From: Candidatus Poriferihabitaceae bacterium
Lineage (GTDB): Bacteria > Pseudomonadota > Gammaproteobacteria > Arenicellales > Poriferihabitantaceae
Assembly: GCA_965249835.1 (NCBI GenBank)
Contig: CBDFMY010000003.1
Span: 1,249,979-1,313,978, forward strand
DNA length: 64,000 bases
Direction of reading: 5' to 3'
Shown: positions 22,045 through 42,632 of the stretch, piece by piece
How positions within the stretch are numbered: the first letter of the stretch is position 1
Layout of the letters: the number at the start of each line of letters is the position of its first letter
Notes under the pieces: generated by a model
What the model was told of the DNA's origin: nothing
Database searches by the model: none
The model's input: the letters and a program-made list of their open reading frames with translations, nothing else
Program-made: the position numbers and the translations under genes

Positions 22045-24057
22045 ATGACACTGCCAATGATTGAAACACTGCCGATACTGATGGGCGCGCTCGGGTTGTG
22101 CGTCGCCTGGGTGATCTACCGGATGATGCTAAAACGCCCGGCCGGCGAAGACAAAGTGGTCGGGATCGCCGAGCAGATTCACCACGGTGCCATGGTGTTC
22201 ATGCGCACCGAATACAAATACCTCGCAGTATTCGTGGCGGTGGTGGCGGTGCTGATTCTGATTTCCGATCTCGGCATCCACACCATGTTCGCTTTTCTGG
22301 TGGGTGCGGTTTGCTCGGCTTTCGCCGGCTACATCGGCATGCACGCCGCTACTCGCGCCAATGTGCGCACCACCACCGCGGCACAAAAGGAAGGCGCGGC
22401 GGCGGCACTGACCGTAGCGTTTTACGGCGGCTCAGTCATGGGCTTGTGCGTGGCTGCCATGGGATTGTTGGGGCTTGGCTTGCTGTATTGGCTTTACGGC
22501 GGCGACCCGCATACCGCCCATGTCATTCACGGCTTCGGCATGGGCGCGTCTTCAGTGGCGTTGTTCTCCCGCGTCGGCGGCGGCATCTTCACCAAGAGCG
22601 CCGATGTCGGTGCCGATCTGGTGGGCAAAATTGAAGTCGGAATCCCCGAAGACGACCCGCGCAATCCGGGGGTAATTGCCGACAATGTGGGTGATAACGT
22701 CGGCGATGTGGCCGGCATGGGCTCGGACATTTTCGAATCCTATTGCGGTGCCATGATCGCCTCCATCGCCATCGCCGCGACCCTTTCGCCGGCCGTGCTG
22801 GCGGCCATCGGCGCGCGAGAAGCGTTGATGTTCCTGCCGCTGGCGTTGGCTTCGGTGGGCATGCTGTGTTCTATCGGCGGTATTCAACTGGTGCACCTGA
22901 ACAGCAAAAAATCCCCCGAACTGGCATTGCGCATCGGCACCATCGGTGCTTCGGTGTTGTTCATCATCGCGGCACTGGCGCTGATTTTGTCGCTGGAAAT
23001 CAGCATCAATGTGTGGGGCGCGGTGCTGGTGGGCGCCGTCGGCGGCATCGGCATCGGCCTGATTACCGAATACTACACCGCCGGAAAACCGGTGCGCGAC
23101 ATCGCCAAAAGCGGCGAAACCGGCCCGGCCACGGTGATGATCGCCGGCCTCGCCGTAGGCATGGAGTCGGTGGTGGTGCCGCTCTTGATTATCAGCGCCA
23201 TCATCCTCTCCGCCAGCGCGCTCACCGGACTATATGGCGTTGGCATCGCCGCCGTGGGTATGCTGGCGACGGTCGGCATCACCATGGCCATTGACGCATA
23301 TGGACCGGTGGCCGACAACGCCGGCGGTATCGCCGAGATGTCCGGTCTGGGCGAGGAAGTGCGCACCATCACCGACTCGCTGGACGAACTCGGCAACACC
23401 ACCGCCGCCATCGGCAAAGGTTTCGCCATCGGTGCCGCAGCACTGGCGGCACTTGCCATTATCTCCGCGTTCATCGAAACCGTGACGCATCTCAACGCCG
23501 ACTTCGCGCTGGAATTGAGCAATCCGCAGGTATTGGCGGGGATGTTTATAGGCGGCATATTCCCATTTCTGGTTTCCAGTATCACCATGAACGCCGTGGG
23601 TGCCGCCGCATTTGAAATGATTCATGAAATTCGTCGGCAGTTCCGCGAAATTCCGGGGCTGATGGAAGGCACCGCACGCCCCGATTCGGAGCGATGCATC
23701 AACATTGCCACGCGTGCCGCGCTAAAAAAGATGATCCTGCCCGGCGTGCTGGCGGTGGCGGCACCGCCGGTCGTCGGCTTCGGTCTGGGTGCCGAAGCGT
23801 TGGGCGGCATGTTGAGCGGCGCACTGCTCGGCTGCGTGTTGATGGCGCTGACCATGGCCAACGCCGGCGGCGCCTGGGACAACGCCAAAAAATATGTGGA
23901 GAAAGGAAACCTCGGCGGCAAAGGCTCGGATGTTCACGCCGCGACCGTGGTCGGCGACACCGTCGGTGACCCGTTTAAGGATACCTCCGGCCCGTCGATG
24001 AACATCCTTATCAATGTCATGGCGATTGTCAGTTTGGTGATTGCGCCGTTGTTGTAG
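22045..24057 (+). CDS. hppA: Membrane-bound proton-translocating pyrophosphatase
   Basis: 670 aa polytopic protein with [46 protein letters not shown] signatures. Confidence 0.95.
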
Positions 24058-24058
24058 G
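24022..24058 (+). repeat. 37-bp direct repeat, copy 1 (3' end of hppA including stop)
   Basis: gcgattgtcagtttggtgattgcgccgttgttgtagg is identical to 24577-24613. Confidence 0.95.
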
Positions 24059-24089
24059 TTGAGAAAATCGCAATGTGGAGAGATTTGTC

Positions 24090-24557
24090 ATGACAGGAAA
24101 AATTATCAACCACCACTACACCGAATGCGGATTGCCGAATGTGTGGATTCGGTGTCGTCAGATAATTGATGATGCCGGAGAAAAGGCAATCATCATTTCC
24201 AATATCGGGAGTTTGCATAAATCAATCGCACACAAAATCGTAGTCGCCGATGGCGCTTTGACTGGTGCGGAAATAAAATTTCTGCGCTCCGAGATGGGTT
24301 GGACGCAAGCACAACTGGCCGAGATTGTGCACTGCCAACGGCTGACCATTTCCCGCTGGGAGAACGGCGAAAGCACAATCAACGGCGCGGCCGATTCATT
24401 CATCCGCATGCTGGCGATCGATAAACTAAAACTCAACAAACTCGCCGCGGAAAAGATCAGCCGCAAGTATAAAAATGTGAGTAACGAGAAATCTCGGAAG
24501 AAAATACCTATTCAAATCGGCGGAGTAAATGTAGCGCGTTGTCGGTTGGCGGCTTAA
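24090..24557 (+). CDS. XRE-family HTH protein with MqsA-like antitoxin architecture (no adjacent toxin)
   Basis: [39 protein letters not shown] (HTH_3-type). GGAGA lies 8 nt upstream of the ATG at 24090. AT-rich; bracketed by the 37-bp repeats. Confidence 0.65.
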
Positions 24558-24576
24558 GGATTAGTTGCGTGGAGTA

Positions 24577-24613
24577 GCGATTGTCAGTTTGGTGATTGCG
24601 CCGTTGTTGTAGG
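24577..24613 (+). repeat. 37-bp direct repeat, copy 2
   Basis: Identical to 24022-24058, 555 bp downstream. Confidence 0.95.
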
Positions 24614-24689
24614 CGGGGTTACATCATCTTTGATTTTCTGCTAATGTTTCCGTACGTAATATCAGCATTTCACCCATTGGAGATTCAAC

Positions 24690-24866
24690 ATGTTTTCCTT
24701 GTTTAAGAAAAAGCCAACAACGAGCAGTGCTCTTTCAGAGTTCATGCGCAATGCTTCTTCGCGGGAAAAAAAACGCGCGTTCAAAAAAATTATCGAAGAG
24801 TCAATCAAAGAACAGCAGAAAATCATCGATATGGCAGATCAGATGGATGCCGAAAAGCGCGCATGA
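24690..24866 (+). CDS. Small basic protein (58 aa), candidate antitoxin/partner of the downstream zeta-like kinase
   Basis: Not in the ORF track (under 60 aa). ATG at 24690 preceded by ttggagattcaac. Reads MFSLFKKKPTTSSALSEFMRNASSREKKRAFKKIIEESIKEQQKIIDMADQMDAEKRA. Same strand, 65 nt upstream of the zeta-like gene. Confidence 0.45.
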   Translation: MFSLFKKKPTTSSALSEFMRNASSREKKRAFKKIIEESIKEQQKIIDMADQMDAEKRA

Positions 24867-24931
24867 TTTTCTCGTTGCGTTGACGGTTCAGGGAATATAG
24901 CCGACAACACCAGACACATGGACGATGGATA

Positions 24932-40771: not shown

Positions 40772-40993
40772 GTGGTCGGCGTGTGGCGACTTGACAAAAG
40801 TAATCCAATGGATTGCGAGGCGCGGCGAATCGTGGGAAGATGCGAGTGATGAAAACGGCAATCCAGTTGGTCGCGCCAGTTGGTCTTGATTTAGGGATTA
40901 CTGTGGGCAACTCGGTGTGATTTTTGTCGGGCATCTGTGCTAATGAATTGGCCAAACTAACGAATCTGCTCGTTAAAAACCACGGAGAAAGCG

Positions 40994-41189
40994 ATGTCTG
41001 AATCTTTCGACAGCATCAAGCGGGGTTTCACCGAAGCGGTTCGGTATTCCGCAGGCAAACGCGTGCAAGCGATTGTCCATGAGTCTGCACCGATTGATGT
41101 GAAAAACACTCGCGCTACTCTTAAAATAAGTCAAGTTGAATGTGGTGGCAAAAAAGCCAAAGGCGGTGCTGGATGCGCTTGCGCGGTGA
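40994..41189 (+). pseudogene. Internally deleted/frameshifted XRE-type antitoxin-like gene
   Basis: The N-terminal MSESFDSIKRGFTEAVRYSAGKRVQAIVHESAPIDVKNTRATLKISQVE matches the common leader of HTH antitoxins. The HTH core is missing. A C-terminal-like LNVVAKKPKAVLDALAR* is readable in the +1 frame ending at 41189. Confidence 0.5.
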
Positions 41190-41226
41190 GCCGGTGCAAA
41201 TCAAAACTCGCAAGAGAGACGTTTTT

Positions 41227-41367
41227 ATGAGTGGAAAAGTAATGAGTGCTTGGGATAGAGTGGAAATCACAACAGACATATACCTTGGCGATAGCAAAGA
41301 TCAACTGAAATCGCTTCCAAGCGATTCTGTCGATCTCATCATTACATCGTCCCTTAGGCAAGAGTAA
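41227..41367 (+). pseudogene. N-terminal stub of a DNA methyltransferase, truncated at motif IV
   Basis: IYLGDSKDQLKSLPSDSVDLIITS is followed by SLRQE* where (S/D)PPY is expected. Confidence 0.6.
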
Positions 41368-41392
41368 AGCGAATAGCGACCATTATTTTAGG

Positions 41393-42359
41393 ATGAACAT
41401 ACAAAATAAAAAGCCCGGAGTGAAAATGAGTTATGAAGGCAGGATGCTTGAGGATTACAATATGCCGGATCGTGATGAGGTTGCGAAGGTCTTGCTAATA
41501 ATGCTTTTTAGACATGGTGGCACAGTCAGAGAGTTTTCAATCGACGAAGCAGTAGTCACGGAAGTCGCTGACAATTTCGGCCTTACCAAAAATCAAAAAG
41601 ATGTTGTTCTTGAGAGAATTTACAAAAAAGAAAACAGAACTGTGCGAACACCTTTGTGGCACAGATTATTGTATAGGGCGGGCGATATATTAGCGAAAGA
41701 AAAATTGGTTACGCGCCCAACAAAAACTTTGAGGCTCACAAATAAAAGAGAATGAATGTTAACCGAGAAAGGATATGACAAGGCCTTGGATCTTCTAAAC
41801 ATTCCATCCGACTACAAATCTGAATTACCAATCAAGCCATATGAAGTCCAAAAAATAGTCGAAAGCATTTCTGCACAATTAAAACCAGAGAGTTATAATC
41901 CTTTCAATAAAAGAAAAAAAAACAAAAATCACAACGAAAAAATCTATTATGAGAAACAGAGGATTCAGACAAGCAATAATTAATGTTTATGATTACAAAT
42001 GTTGTGTTTGCGGGTTGAAGTTGCGTTCACCCGATAAATTACGATGGGAAGTGCAAGCCGCGCACATAGTTCCTCATAGATATTTTGGAAGAGACGATAT
42101 ATGGAATGGGTTGGCATTATGCCAATTGCATCATTGGGCTTTTGATGTAGGACTATTTAGTTGTGATGGGAATTTTAAAGTAGTGTCTTTAATGGAATCA
42201 CAATCCTTAGGAAGTGATTACGGTATGATATTTGGTTATGATTTTTTGGATCATTTAAAGTCTGGCAGATGTTTCTTGAAGTTGCCAAAAGCAGCAAAGC
42301 ATTATCCGGATATGGCTGCTATAAATTGGCACAGAACTAACATTTATAATGGCAGGTAA
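41393..42359 (+). pseudogene. Disrupted HNH (HNH_2-type) restriction-endonuclease-like gene in three pieces
   Basis: Three abutting ORFs: 41393-41755, 41756-41983, 41949-42359. The first ends ...LRLTNKRE* and is followed directly by MLTEKG. There is a frameshift between YYEKQRIQTSNN* and MRNRGFRQAII. The last piece carries CCVCG...AAHIVPH...NGLALCQLHHWAFDVG. Confidence 0.55.
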
Positions 42360-42568
42360 TGGCCATCGGTATGGAAAATCACTTAATCAACCAACTAATC
42401 TACCAGTTAGATGAAGACGATGCGCAACAAGTTGCTATGGGAAGTCTCGGAAGATATCTTATTAAGAATGAATTGACCGCATTAAAAGATAAAATTTGCG
42501 AAAAGATAGATTGGCATGAAGCGATTGATTCTGCTATATCCGATATAACATCGTCCGAAGCGTCCTGA
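42359..42568 (+). CDS. Hypothetical acidic protein (69 aa)
   Basis: The ATG overlaps the preceding TAA (TAATG). AT-rich. No family recognised. Confidence 0.3.
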   Translation: MAIGMENHLINQLIYQLDEDDAQQVAMGSLGRYLIKNELTALKDKICEKIDWHEAIDSAISDITSSEAS

Positions 42569-42632
42569 AACGCGTGGAGCTTCGCTTCATCCAAAGTAAA
42601 TTAATATTCCTGAAATTCACCGAACCGAGCAG

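Follow-up and report, generated by a model that had tools for sequence, protein, structure and literature searches.

Why do small foreign genes sit immediately behind the stop codons of core genes, and point in the same direction as those genes? The question is raised by a 64,000-nucleotide (nt) stretch of the genome of a Candidatus Poriferihabitaceae bacterium (hereafter the window; C3:1249979-1313978 of the 2.77-Mb, four-contig genome G000, GC content (GC) 0.53). The host is a sponge-symbiont, sulfur-oxidiser-type gammaproteobacterium. Composition and open reading frame (ORF) maps place AT-rich patches directly 3' of four plus-strand core genes: GC drops as soon as the M19 dipeptidase gene (stop at 7561), hppA (24057) and qmoB (35811) have ended, and about 300 nt past the stop of hdrB (40771). 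Every cargo ORF in the four patches is on the plus strand, and Pfam, NCBIfam and PADLOC scans found no integrase or transposase domain in any of them. All this agrees with an earlier note on this DNA, which had read the patches as promoterless cassettes that use homology to enter behind energy genes with high expression and are transcribed by read-through. We consider it likely that the patches represent cargo in recombination hot spots that lie between conserved core genes and work without a recombinase, and that this cargo is sometimes stacked.

Duplicated core-gene ends and their joints

Self-comparison of the window reveals two repeats, one of 331 nt at qmoB and one of 37 nt at hppA, both ending 0-1 nt past the stop codon. 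The earlier note had reported duplicated ends at these two genes, and both hold up (331 nt, 99.4% identical; 37 nt, 100% identical). The qmoB site is composed as follows.

32186-35811, plus strand: qmoA (32186-33508) and qmoB (33505-35811), named from domain architecture and gene order (Pfam FAD/Rossmann, Fer4, FlpD)
35481-35811, plus strand: first copy of the qmoB direct repeat, the last 331 nt of qmoB including its TGA, matching 37536-37866
35906-36808, plus strand: M1, a Type II DNA methyltransferase (PADLOC MTase_II, 1.2e-31)
36805-37395, plus strand: R1, a 196-amino-acid (aa) PD-(D/E)xK restriction-endonuclease-like protein whose start overlaps the M1 stop
37513-37539, plus strand: foreign hdrC start (MNPIEKYRN), read from sequence and alignment as the joint of two stacked alleles and joined to the second qmoB repeat copy through a CAAC microhomology
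37536-37866, plus strand: second copy of the qmoB direct repeat, a displaced qmoB 3' end (Pfam FlpD, 2.3e-29) that reads as a 117-aa ORF at 37513-37866
38019-39218, plus strand: methyltransferase (MTase)-HNH fusion gene, taken as the resident allele of the qmoB|hdrC gap (Pfam N6_N4_Mtase, 1e-47; HNH, 1.1e-10)
39220-40771, plus strand: hdrC-like (39220-39852) and hdrB-like (39857-40771) genes (Pfam Fer4_8 and CCG)

The qmoB insert spans 1724 nt (35812-37535) at a GC of 0.41 and carries M1 and R1. The R1 family has an invariant GD...EYK motif, and the AlphaFold2 model of R1 (predicted local distance difference test (pLDDT) score 90) has NhoI, DpnI and PvuII as its top Foldseek matches (E 5e-4), which predicts that R1 is a restriction-endonuclease-like protein. 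The overlapping M1-R1 pair recurs on an unrelated metagenome contig (L117) at 54% (M1) and 50% (R1) identity. The far end of the insert is formed by ATGAATCCAATCGAAAAATATCGCAAC, which directly precedes the second qmoB repeat copy and encodes MNPIEKYRN, the start of an hdrC gene. This start differs both from that of the empty allele in G005 (MTSAVEKYRN) and from that of the resident gene (MNSANTSAVEKYRN).

The hppA site has the following parts.

22045-24057, plus strand: hppA, H+-pyrophosphatase (Pfam H_PPase, 2e-255), the core gene upstream of the site
24022-24058, plus strand: first copy of the hppA direct repeat, the final 36 nt of hppA and 1 nt beyond, identical to 24577-24613
24090-24557, plus strand: MqsA/XRE-like helix-turn-helix (HTH) gene, antitoxin-like (Pfam HTH_3; NCBIfam MqsA family at 6.5e-14, under that family's cut-off)
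24577-24613, plus strand: second copy of the 37-nt hppA direct repeat, a displaced hppA 3' end
24932-25630, plus strand: zeta-toxin-like kinase (Pfam Zeta_toxin, 8e-34), taken as older cargo of the hppA|pfk hot spot
25645-26607, plus strand: PDC-S11/DUF4268 gene (Pfam DUF4268, 5.5e-34; PADLOC PDC-S11, 1.8e-110), likewise taken as older cargo
26809-28062, minus strand: phosphofructokinase gene (pfk; Pfam PFK, 1.2e-46), the convergent core gene that closes the hot spot

The hppA insert measures 518 nt (24059-24576), and the HTH gene is its sole gene.

We screened the whole genome for direct repeats that are present in two copies and abut a stop codon on the side of the cargo, and found two more loci. 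At gshB, a 224-nt repeat (95.5% identical) flanks a Type II methyltransferase and a 391-aa gene; at a livM-like permease gene, a 108-nt repeat (94.4% identical) flanks PD-T4-4/PDC-M47 A+B and HepT/MntA. The repeats at all four loci (qmoB, hppA, gshB and livM-like) end 0-3 nt past the stop, where chance is estimated to give about 0.1 such coincidences among some 32 boundaries, and the genome has exactly two copies of each repeat. At other low-GC inserts with flanking repeats, it is the 5' ends of genes that are duplicated, namely those of an FAD-oxidoreductase gene (351 nt), atpG (84 nt) and an oxoprolinase gene (129 nt), and the 351-nt copy separates two restriction-modification (R-M) pairs. 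The oxoprolinase piece closes the gshB insert and consists of a foreign N-terminus followed by 129 nt that are 100% identical to the resident gene. Because the qmoB insert ends in a foreign hdrC start and the gshB insert in an oxoprolinase 5' piece, the incoming DNA would in each case have been another allele of the same gap. We therefore read it as a fragment running from the 3' end of the upstream gene through the cargo to the 5' start of the downstream gene, which appears now to stand in tandem with the resident allele. This lends support to the earlier proposal of entry by homology at core-gene ends without an integron, as the repeats are copies of core-gene ends. A search among the inserts turned up no attC-like ends, no terminal inverted repeats and no cassette ends in common.

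Direct repeats of a target gene's 3' end are also the classic footprint of an integrase, and the 37-nt hppA repeat is of the usual size for one. The inserts could accordingly be integrase-less satellites resembling cis-mobilizable elements (CIMEs), which a tyrosine or serine recombinase would move in trans by way of an attachment site (att) in the target gene's 3' end. We regard this as very improbable, since no integrase lies in or beside any insert, the repeats range from 37 to 351 nt, are mutually unrelated and share no common core, and two inserts have, at their far ends, 5' pieces of the downstream core gene, which are not a product of att recombination. As element classes, both an integrase-mediated element or CIME (no recombinase in or near the inserts, and unrelated repeats) and an integron cassette array (no integrase domain, terminal inverted repeats or shared ends) were rejected.

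The tandem arrangement could also be thought to come from the assembly, as a chimera of two co-existing strains, because the genome, judging by the titles of its relatives, is a metagenome-assembled genome (MAG) and sponge metagenomes are often strain mixtures. This is scarcely credible here. The joints are unique sequences at 4-nt microhomologies, which an overlap graph could not invent, and the same architecture is found at at least six separate loci. Two of the repeat pairs have diverged to 94-96% identity, indicating that they are old, and another species of the genus, G011, has a comparable 5' duplication of the M20 peptidase gene.

The architecture closely resembles the 'insertion with long target duplication' of Kobayashi (Nobusato et al., 2000; Furuta, Abe and Kobayashi, 2010, PMC2853133). 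The cited passages of the 2010 paper describe R-M inserts with target duplications of 30-423 bp and no mobility genes. The qmoB insert, with both R and M homologues, fits this class, while the hppA insert, with an HTH gene only, fits it in a wider sense; both are shorter than 20 kb (1724 and 518 nt), their repeats exceed 30 bp (331 and 37 nt) and are unique to the locus pair in the genome, and there is no other mobility gene. Compared with the cases in those passages, the likeness extends to small R-M units (1.7 and 2.6 kb here) without a mobility gene, to long flanking direct repeats made of host sequence that is otherwise unique (331 and 224 nt here), to an insert GC below that of the host, and to repeats that overlap the 3' end of the neighbouring gene, as in the Haemophilus influenzae cases. 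Two features set the present inserts apart from what is described there: the start of the downstream core gene stands at the far end of the insert, and defence cargo other than R-M (PD-T4-4, HepT/MntA, the HTH gene) takes part as well.

Within the hot-spot reading, each variable stretch starts at the upstream core gene's last codon and reaches into the first few codons of the core gene downstream. The edges of a hot spot would then be the last and first conserved codons, which would explain why the repeats halt at the stop codon and why cargo seems to start right after it. The cargo consists of defence or addiction genes: a Type II R-M pair, MTase-HNH, an orphan methyltransferase, an HTH antitoxin-like gene, a zeta-toxin-like kinase with PDC-S11, and decayed remnants. 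Host homologous recombination anchored in the flanking core genes may exchange this cargo, and an incoming allele may sometimes be added instead of swapped. The stacked structure can be read directly from the DNA, and either of two routes may have led to it. A fragment consisting of the core-gene 3' end, the cargo and the start of the next gene could have been circularised at a microhomology and entered by a single crossover, or two alleles could have undergone unequal exchange. Both would yield tandem alleles with a long direct repeat, made of the core-gene end, between them, which is the structure that Kobayashi named. An addictive R-M or toxin-antitoxin cargo would then probably resist its own loss by recombination between the repeats.

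Several points weigh against this reading. The two qmoB repeat copies (H1 and H2) differ by only 2 nt, and yet the hdrC start of the insert is unlike that of the resident gene; a close donor or gene conversion would be needed to account for both. Neither the single-allele donor form nor an empty site of the same species was seen in the comparison set, which comprises one genome per species and thus spans other species only. A donor-allele search with M1 in contigs of genomes and metagenomes gave only relatives of at most 40% identity, the hdrC'-qmoB joint had no match in metagenome contigs, and exact-protein look-ups for QmoB, M1 and MTase-HNH found no record. The far end of the hppA insert carries no fragment of the downstream gene, so that this insert is only a candidate hot-spot allele. 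Circle integration, unequal exchange and homology-facilitated illegitimate recombination would look alike in the sequence and are indistinguishable from it. The gene calls rest on our own simple dicodon caller, which gave 2220 genes genome-wide.

Orientation and spacing of the inserted genes

The earlier note took co-orientation with, and proximity to, the upstream gene as a special rule of the inserts. The genome-wide test gives background values on all counts. As 73.7% of adjacent gene pairs in the genome are co-oriented, four co-oriented sites out of four in one window have a probability of about 0.3. We delimited 111 low-GC islands with core-gene flanks across the genome. Upstream boundaries of low-GC islands are co-oriented in 86 of 114 cases (75%), and islands between same-direction flanks comprise 59 co-oriented, 9 anti-oriented and 5 mixed ones, that is, 87% co-oriented. 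This value departs strongly from a 50% coin flip (p = 4e-10) and does not differ from the 84.5% found for triples of core genes (Fisher p = 0.73). The spacing of island genes is no tighter than that of ordinary genes: the median distance from the upstream stop is 94 nt for island genes versus 33 nt for core genes, and 72% of island genes start within 220 nt of that stop, compared to 80% of ordinary co-oriented pairs. Foreign genes are thus clearly non-random in orientation, yet they follow the same rule as ordinary genes. Such a rule would arise if only co-oriented, non-terminating inserts were tolerated between co-directional genes, above all in operons, and tolerance of this kind would give both the co-orientation and the tight spacing.

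These results make a dedicated way of life as a promoterless cassette unlikely, in which cassettes would be drawn to the 3' ends of energy genes with high expression and depend on read-through, integron-like but without the integron. Three of the four upstream genes (hppA, qmoB and hdrB) are energy genes as the earlier note had it, and the dipeptidase gene is not. The idea does draw on real features: the MTase-HNH gene sits tightly, with 1-nt spacers, inside the qmoAB-hdrCB operon, eight genomes of the genus have co-oriented cargo in their ATP synthase operon at atpA|atpG and atpG|atpD, and the 87% co-orientation of islands far exceeds one half. But ordinary genes are oriented to the same degree and are more tightly spaced, and 38 of the 111 islands lie between convergent or divergent genes. 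The S10-spc-alpha ribosomal operon (C3:121793-137743), the most highly expressed operon checked, is free of cargo, which argues against a general attraction to strong promoters. Repeat-flanked inserts also lie by the gshB, livM-like, oxoprolinase and FAD-oxidoreductase genes, and some lie upstream of genes and duplicate 5' ends. There is, moreover, no conserved cassette boundary. Integron gene cassettes offer a functional analogy only, as small, promoterless, co-oriented genes downstream of a host promoter, and they differ in having intI, attI/attC and a conserved cassette boundary, none of which is found here.

Promoter and terminator scans of the inserts gave counts equal to those of shuffled sequences and were uninformative. 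Because some of the cargo is locked in an operon, as MTase-HNH is by its 1-nt spacers, a dependence of operon-embedded cargo on read-through appears plausible.

Variable core-gene junctions across the genus

Hot spots without mobile genetic elements (MGEs), in which content turns over by recombination at the core genes that flank them, are known (Oliveira, 2017, PMC5635113), and the same core flanks with differing content are found here at qmoB|hdrC, hppA|pfk and hdrB|M20. A search with the MTase-HNH protein led to relatives that are MAGs from sponges, with titles that read Ca. Spongiihabitans, Ca. Poriferihabitaceae, Arenicellales or Gammaproteobacteria. Junction gaps in relatives were taken from match coordinates, not from full annotation. 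The qmoB-hdrC gap measures 6-36 nt in G004, G005, G015 and G027, about 120-160 nt in G010 and G020, and 1.1-3.4 kb in six genomes of the genus (G000, G001, G003, G006, G007 and G011). The hppA|pfk gap ranges from 328 nt (G015) to 3839 nt, and the hdrB-M20 gap from about 20 nt (G004) to 11.7 kb (G001). The sites are thus polymorphic between species, in line with the presence-absence variation for which the earlier note had proposed to look. In the window, the hdrB|M20 junction holds decayed cargo (40994-42568, plus strand).

40994-41230, plus strand: HTH-like stub (from the ORF translation)
41140-41367, plus strand: MTase stub, '...SVDLIITS' (from the ORF translation)
within 40994-42568, plus strand: 120-aa ORF
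41949-42359, plus strand: C-terminal HNH portion of a restriction endonuclease of the PT-DNA type (Pfam HNH_2, 4e-12; NCBIfam PT-DNA_restrict, positions 161-283 of 284)
42633-43790, plus strand: M20 peptidase gene (Pfam Peptidase_M20), the core gene that closes the hot spot

HicB-like antitoxin genes, so named by eye, follow hdrB in G001 and G011. In G011 (C1:1370241-1374664), an extra 5' fragment of the M20 gene (aa 1-149) lies about 2.8 kb from the full gene, which indicates that other species of the genus have the long-target-duplication architecture too.

The ATP synthase operon of G000 (C3:492149-501973) is likewise split by co-oriented cargo. Its order on one strand is atpI-B-E-F-H-A, three cargo genes, atpG, seven cargo genes, atpD-C and a weakly GIY-YIG-like gene. 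The three genes between atpA and atpG include a displaced 84-nt copy of the atpG 5' end with its own GTG start; the seven between atpG and atpD include an orphan N6/N4 methyltransferase and two paralogous genes of 191 and 195 aa that share a 196-nt 3' repeat. In all eight same-genus genomes compared, atpA and atpG are 1.1-4.0 kb apart and atpG and atpD 0.1-3.5 kb apart, while the distances are 32-45 nt and 60-79 nt, respectively, in G017 (another genus) and G019 (another family). According to the literature, it is rare for operons to take in new genes (PMC5635113). The junctions resemble the MGE-free or core defence hot spots described by Oliveira (PMC5635113) and, in Pseudomonas aeruginosa, by Johnson et al. 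(2023, PMC10250203) in their variable defence cargo between the same core genes, in the lack of an integrase or transposase and in that some genomes are empty. They differ in that several lie inside operons (qmoB|hdrC, atpA|atpG and atpG|atpD) and in that they are tiny (0.5-4 kb) and extend right up to the last codon of one flanking gene and the first codon of the other.

The sequence comparison places MTase-HNH at the qmoB|hdrC junction in G000, G001, G007 and G011 and in two further MAGs, sometimes with extra small ORFs or a HAD hydrolase. Its stop lies 1 nt from the hdrC start (39220) in the window, and in G007 its start lies 1 nt past the qmoB stop. In MAG STY2_bin_1 (L015:5186-5918), an ORF that resembles a HAD-type hydrolase by eye stands between MTase-HNH and hdrC, indicating that the cargo at this junction is not made up of defence genes only. 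Relatives of MTase-HNH at about 50% identity occur across many sponge-symbiont phyla. In other sponge symbionts, the gene is found in multicopy elements of 2.5-2.6 kb whose copies are 99.5-99.9% identical (L078, L080, L082 and L083 on OZ244914.1; L067-L069 on OX638335.1; L024/L025). These elements also hold a convergent gene for a 312-314-aa transposase, read by eye as IS1595-type, and MTase-HNH would be a transposon passenger in them.

Could MTase-HNH, and perhaps the GIY-YIG gene after atpC, instead be a free-standing homing endonuclease? Such an enzyme would cut the unmethylated empty qmoB|hdrC junction and be copied in by break repair, with the methyltransferase domain shielding the host. 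An intact HNH domain (1.1e-10) is fused to the methyltransferase, six genomes of the genus have the junction filled and two (G004 and G005) have it empty, and the family is mobile elsewhere, in the transposase-bearing multicopy elements. The position also recalls the free-standing homing endonuclease genes of phage T4 (seg/mob, 'intronless homing'), in that an HNH nuclease gene stands tightly between two conserved genes that are transcribed together, and that relatives either have it or lack it at precisely this junction. Those genes differ from the one described here, which is fused to a DNA methyltransferase, lies in a bacterial chromosome and is known from sequence alone. Homing nevertheless seems quite improbable to us. 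Between species, the junction MTase-HNH proteins are 64-71% identical, close to the 71-75% of QmoB, a divergence that fits old vertical descent with losses, and the M1-R1 allele reached the same site without any such nuclease. With a GC of 0.51 and an identity near that of QmoB, MTase-HNH fits an old resident.

Neighbouring features and biological meaning

The site behind the dipeptidase gene consists of the following features.

6527-7561, plus strand: M19 membrane dipeptidase gene (Pfam Peptidase_M19, E 4.5e-79), the core gene upstream of the site
7682-8557, plus strand: orphan N6/N4 DNA methyltransferase (Pfam N6_N4_Mtase, 1.4e-39; PADLOC MTase_II, 3.6e-48), GC 0.38

The stop of the orphan methyltransferase gene (8557) overlaps that of a convergent cytidylyltransferase gene (8554-8991, minus strand). 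With it, methyltransferases stand at four places within the patches; the four genes or stubs counted in the earlier note resolve into three genes (7682-8557, 35906-36808 and MTase-HNH at 38019-39218) and one stub (41140-41367). Two further AT-rich patches of the window break the pattern, one with a Type III restriction gene (3-2711) and the other an islet with LysR (minus strand) and EamA genes (29.5-31.9 kb). A C-terminal stub of an IS30-family transposase (...INNRPRKCLGMKTPNQALFGINPPVALRG*) at about 31930-32075, upstream of qmoA, adjoins this islet, and a second copy of the element's end lies at 45797-45895 (85% identity over about 105 nt, 94% over a 53-nt core).

A family of intergenic repeats of about 100 nt, similar to repetitive extragenic palindromes (REP) or miniature inverted-repeat transposable elements (MITE) and carrying a GC-rich hairpin (GCGCGC...GCGCGC), is found at 14051-14147, 48503-48599, 54264-54360, 56162-56258 and 58562-58646, and a related piece lies at the gshB joint (C3:1359160-1359260). 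The LppC/LpoA-like gene (10777-13257, minus strand) contains three tandem 90-nt repeats, 92-95% identical, at 12563-12843. As a by-product, the repeat screen returned a run resembling a clustered regularly interspaced short palindromic repeat (CRISPR) array at C3:1525567-1528512 of G000, with repeats of about 36 nt spaced about 72 nt apart. ComEC is present in this genome and likewise in non-competent controls, and is uninformative on natural transformation.

What is new here is the evidence from the joints for the stacking of alleles, together with intra-operon hot spots across a genus. The apparent rule, co-orientation and a start after the stop codon, is now separated from the features that are truly unusual. 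The joints provide sequence-level evidence on how 'insertion with long target duplication', whose mechanism has been open since 2000, may arise. In one symbiont genus, defence hot spots lie inside operons that are usually deemed untouchable, those of ATP synthase and Qmo-Hdr. A further and tentative possibility is that selfish defence genes have colonised the spacers of energy operons throughout the genus (atpA|atpG, atpG|atpD and qmoB|hdrC), where they would be transcribed by the host, would provide the essential gene downstream with its ribosome-binding site, start codon and first residues, and would be swapped or stacked by host recombination alone, an integron-like economy with core-gene ends as attachment sites. 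If the cargo is co-transcribed, these junctions would be a natural system for selfish genes that hitch onto essential operons, in which the starts of host genes are rewritten as the cargo turns over.

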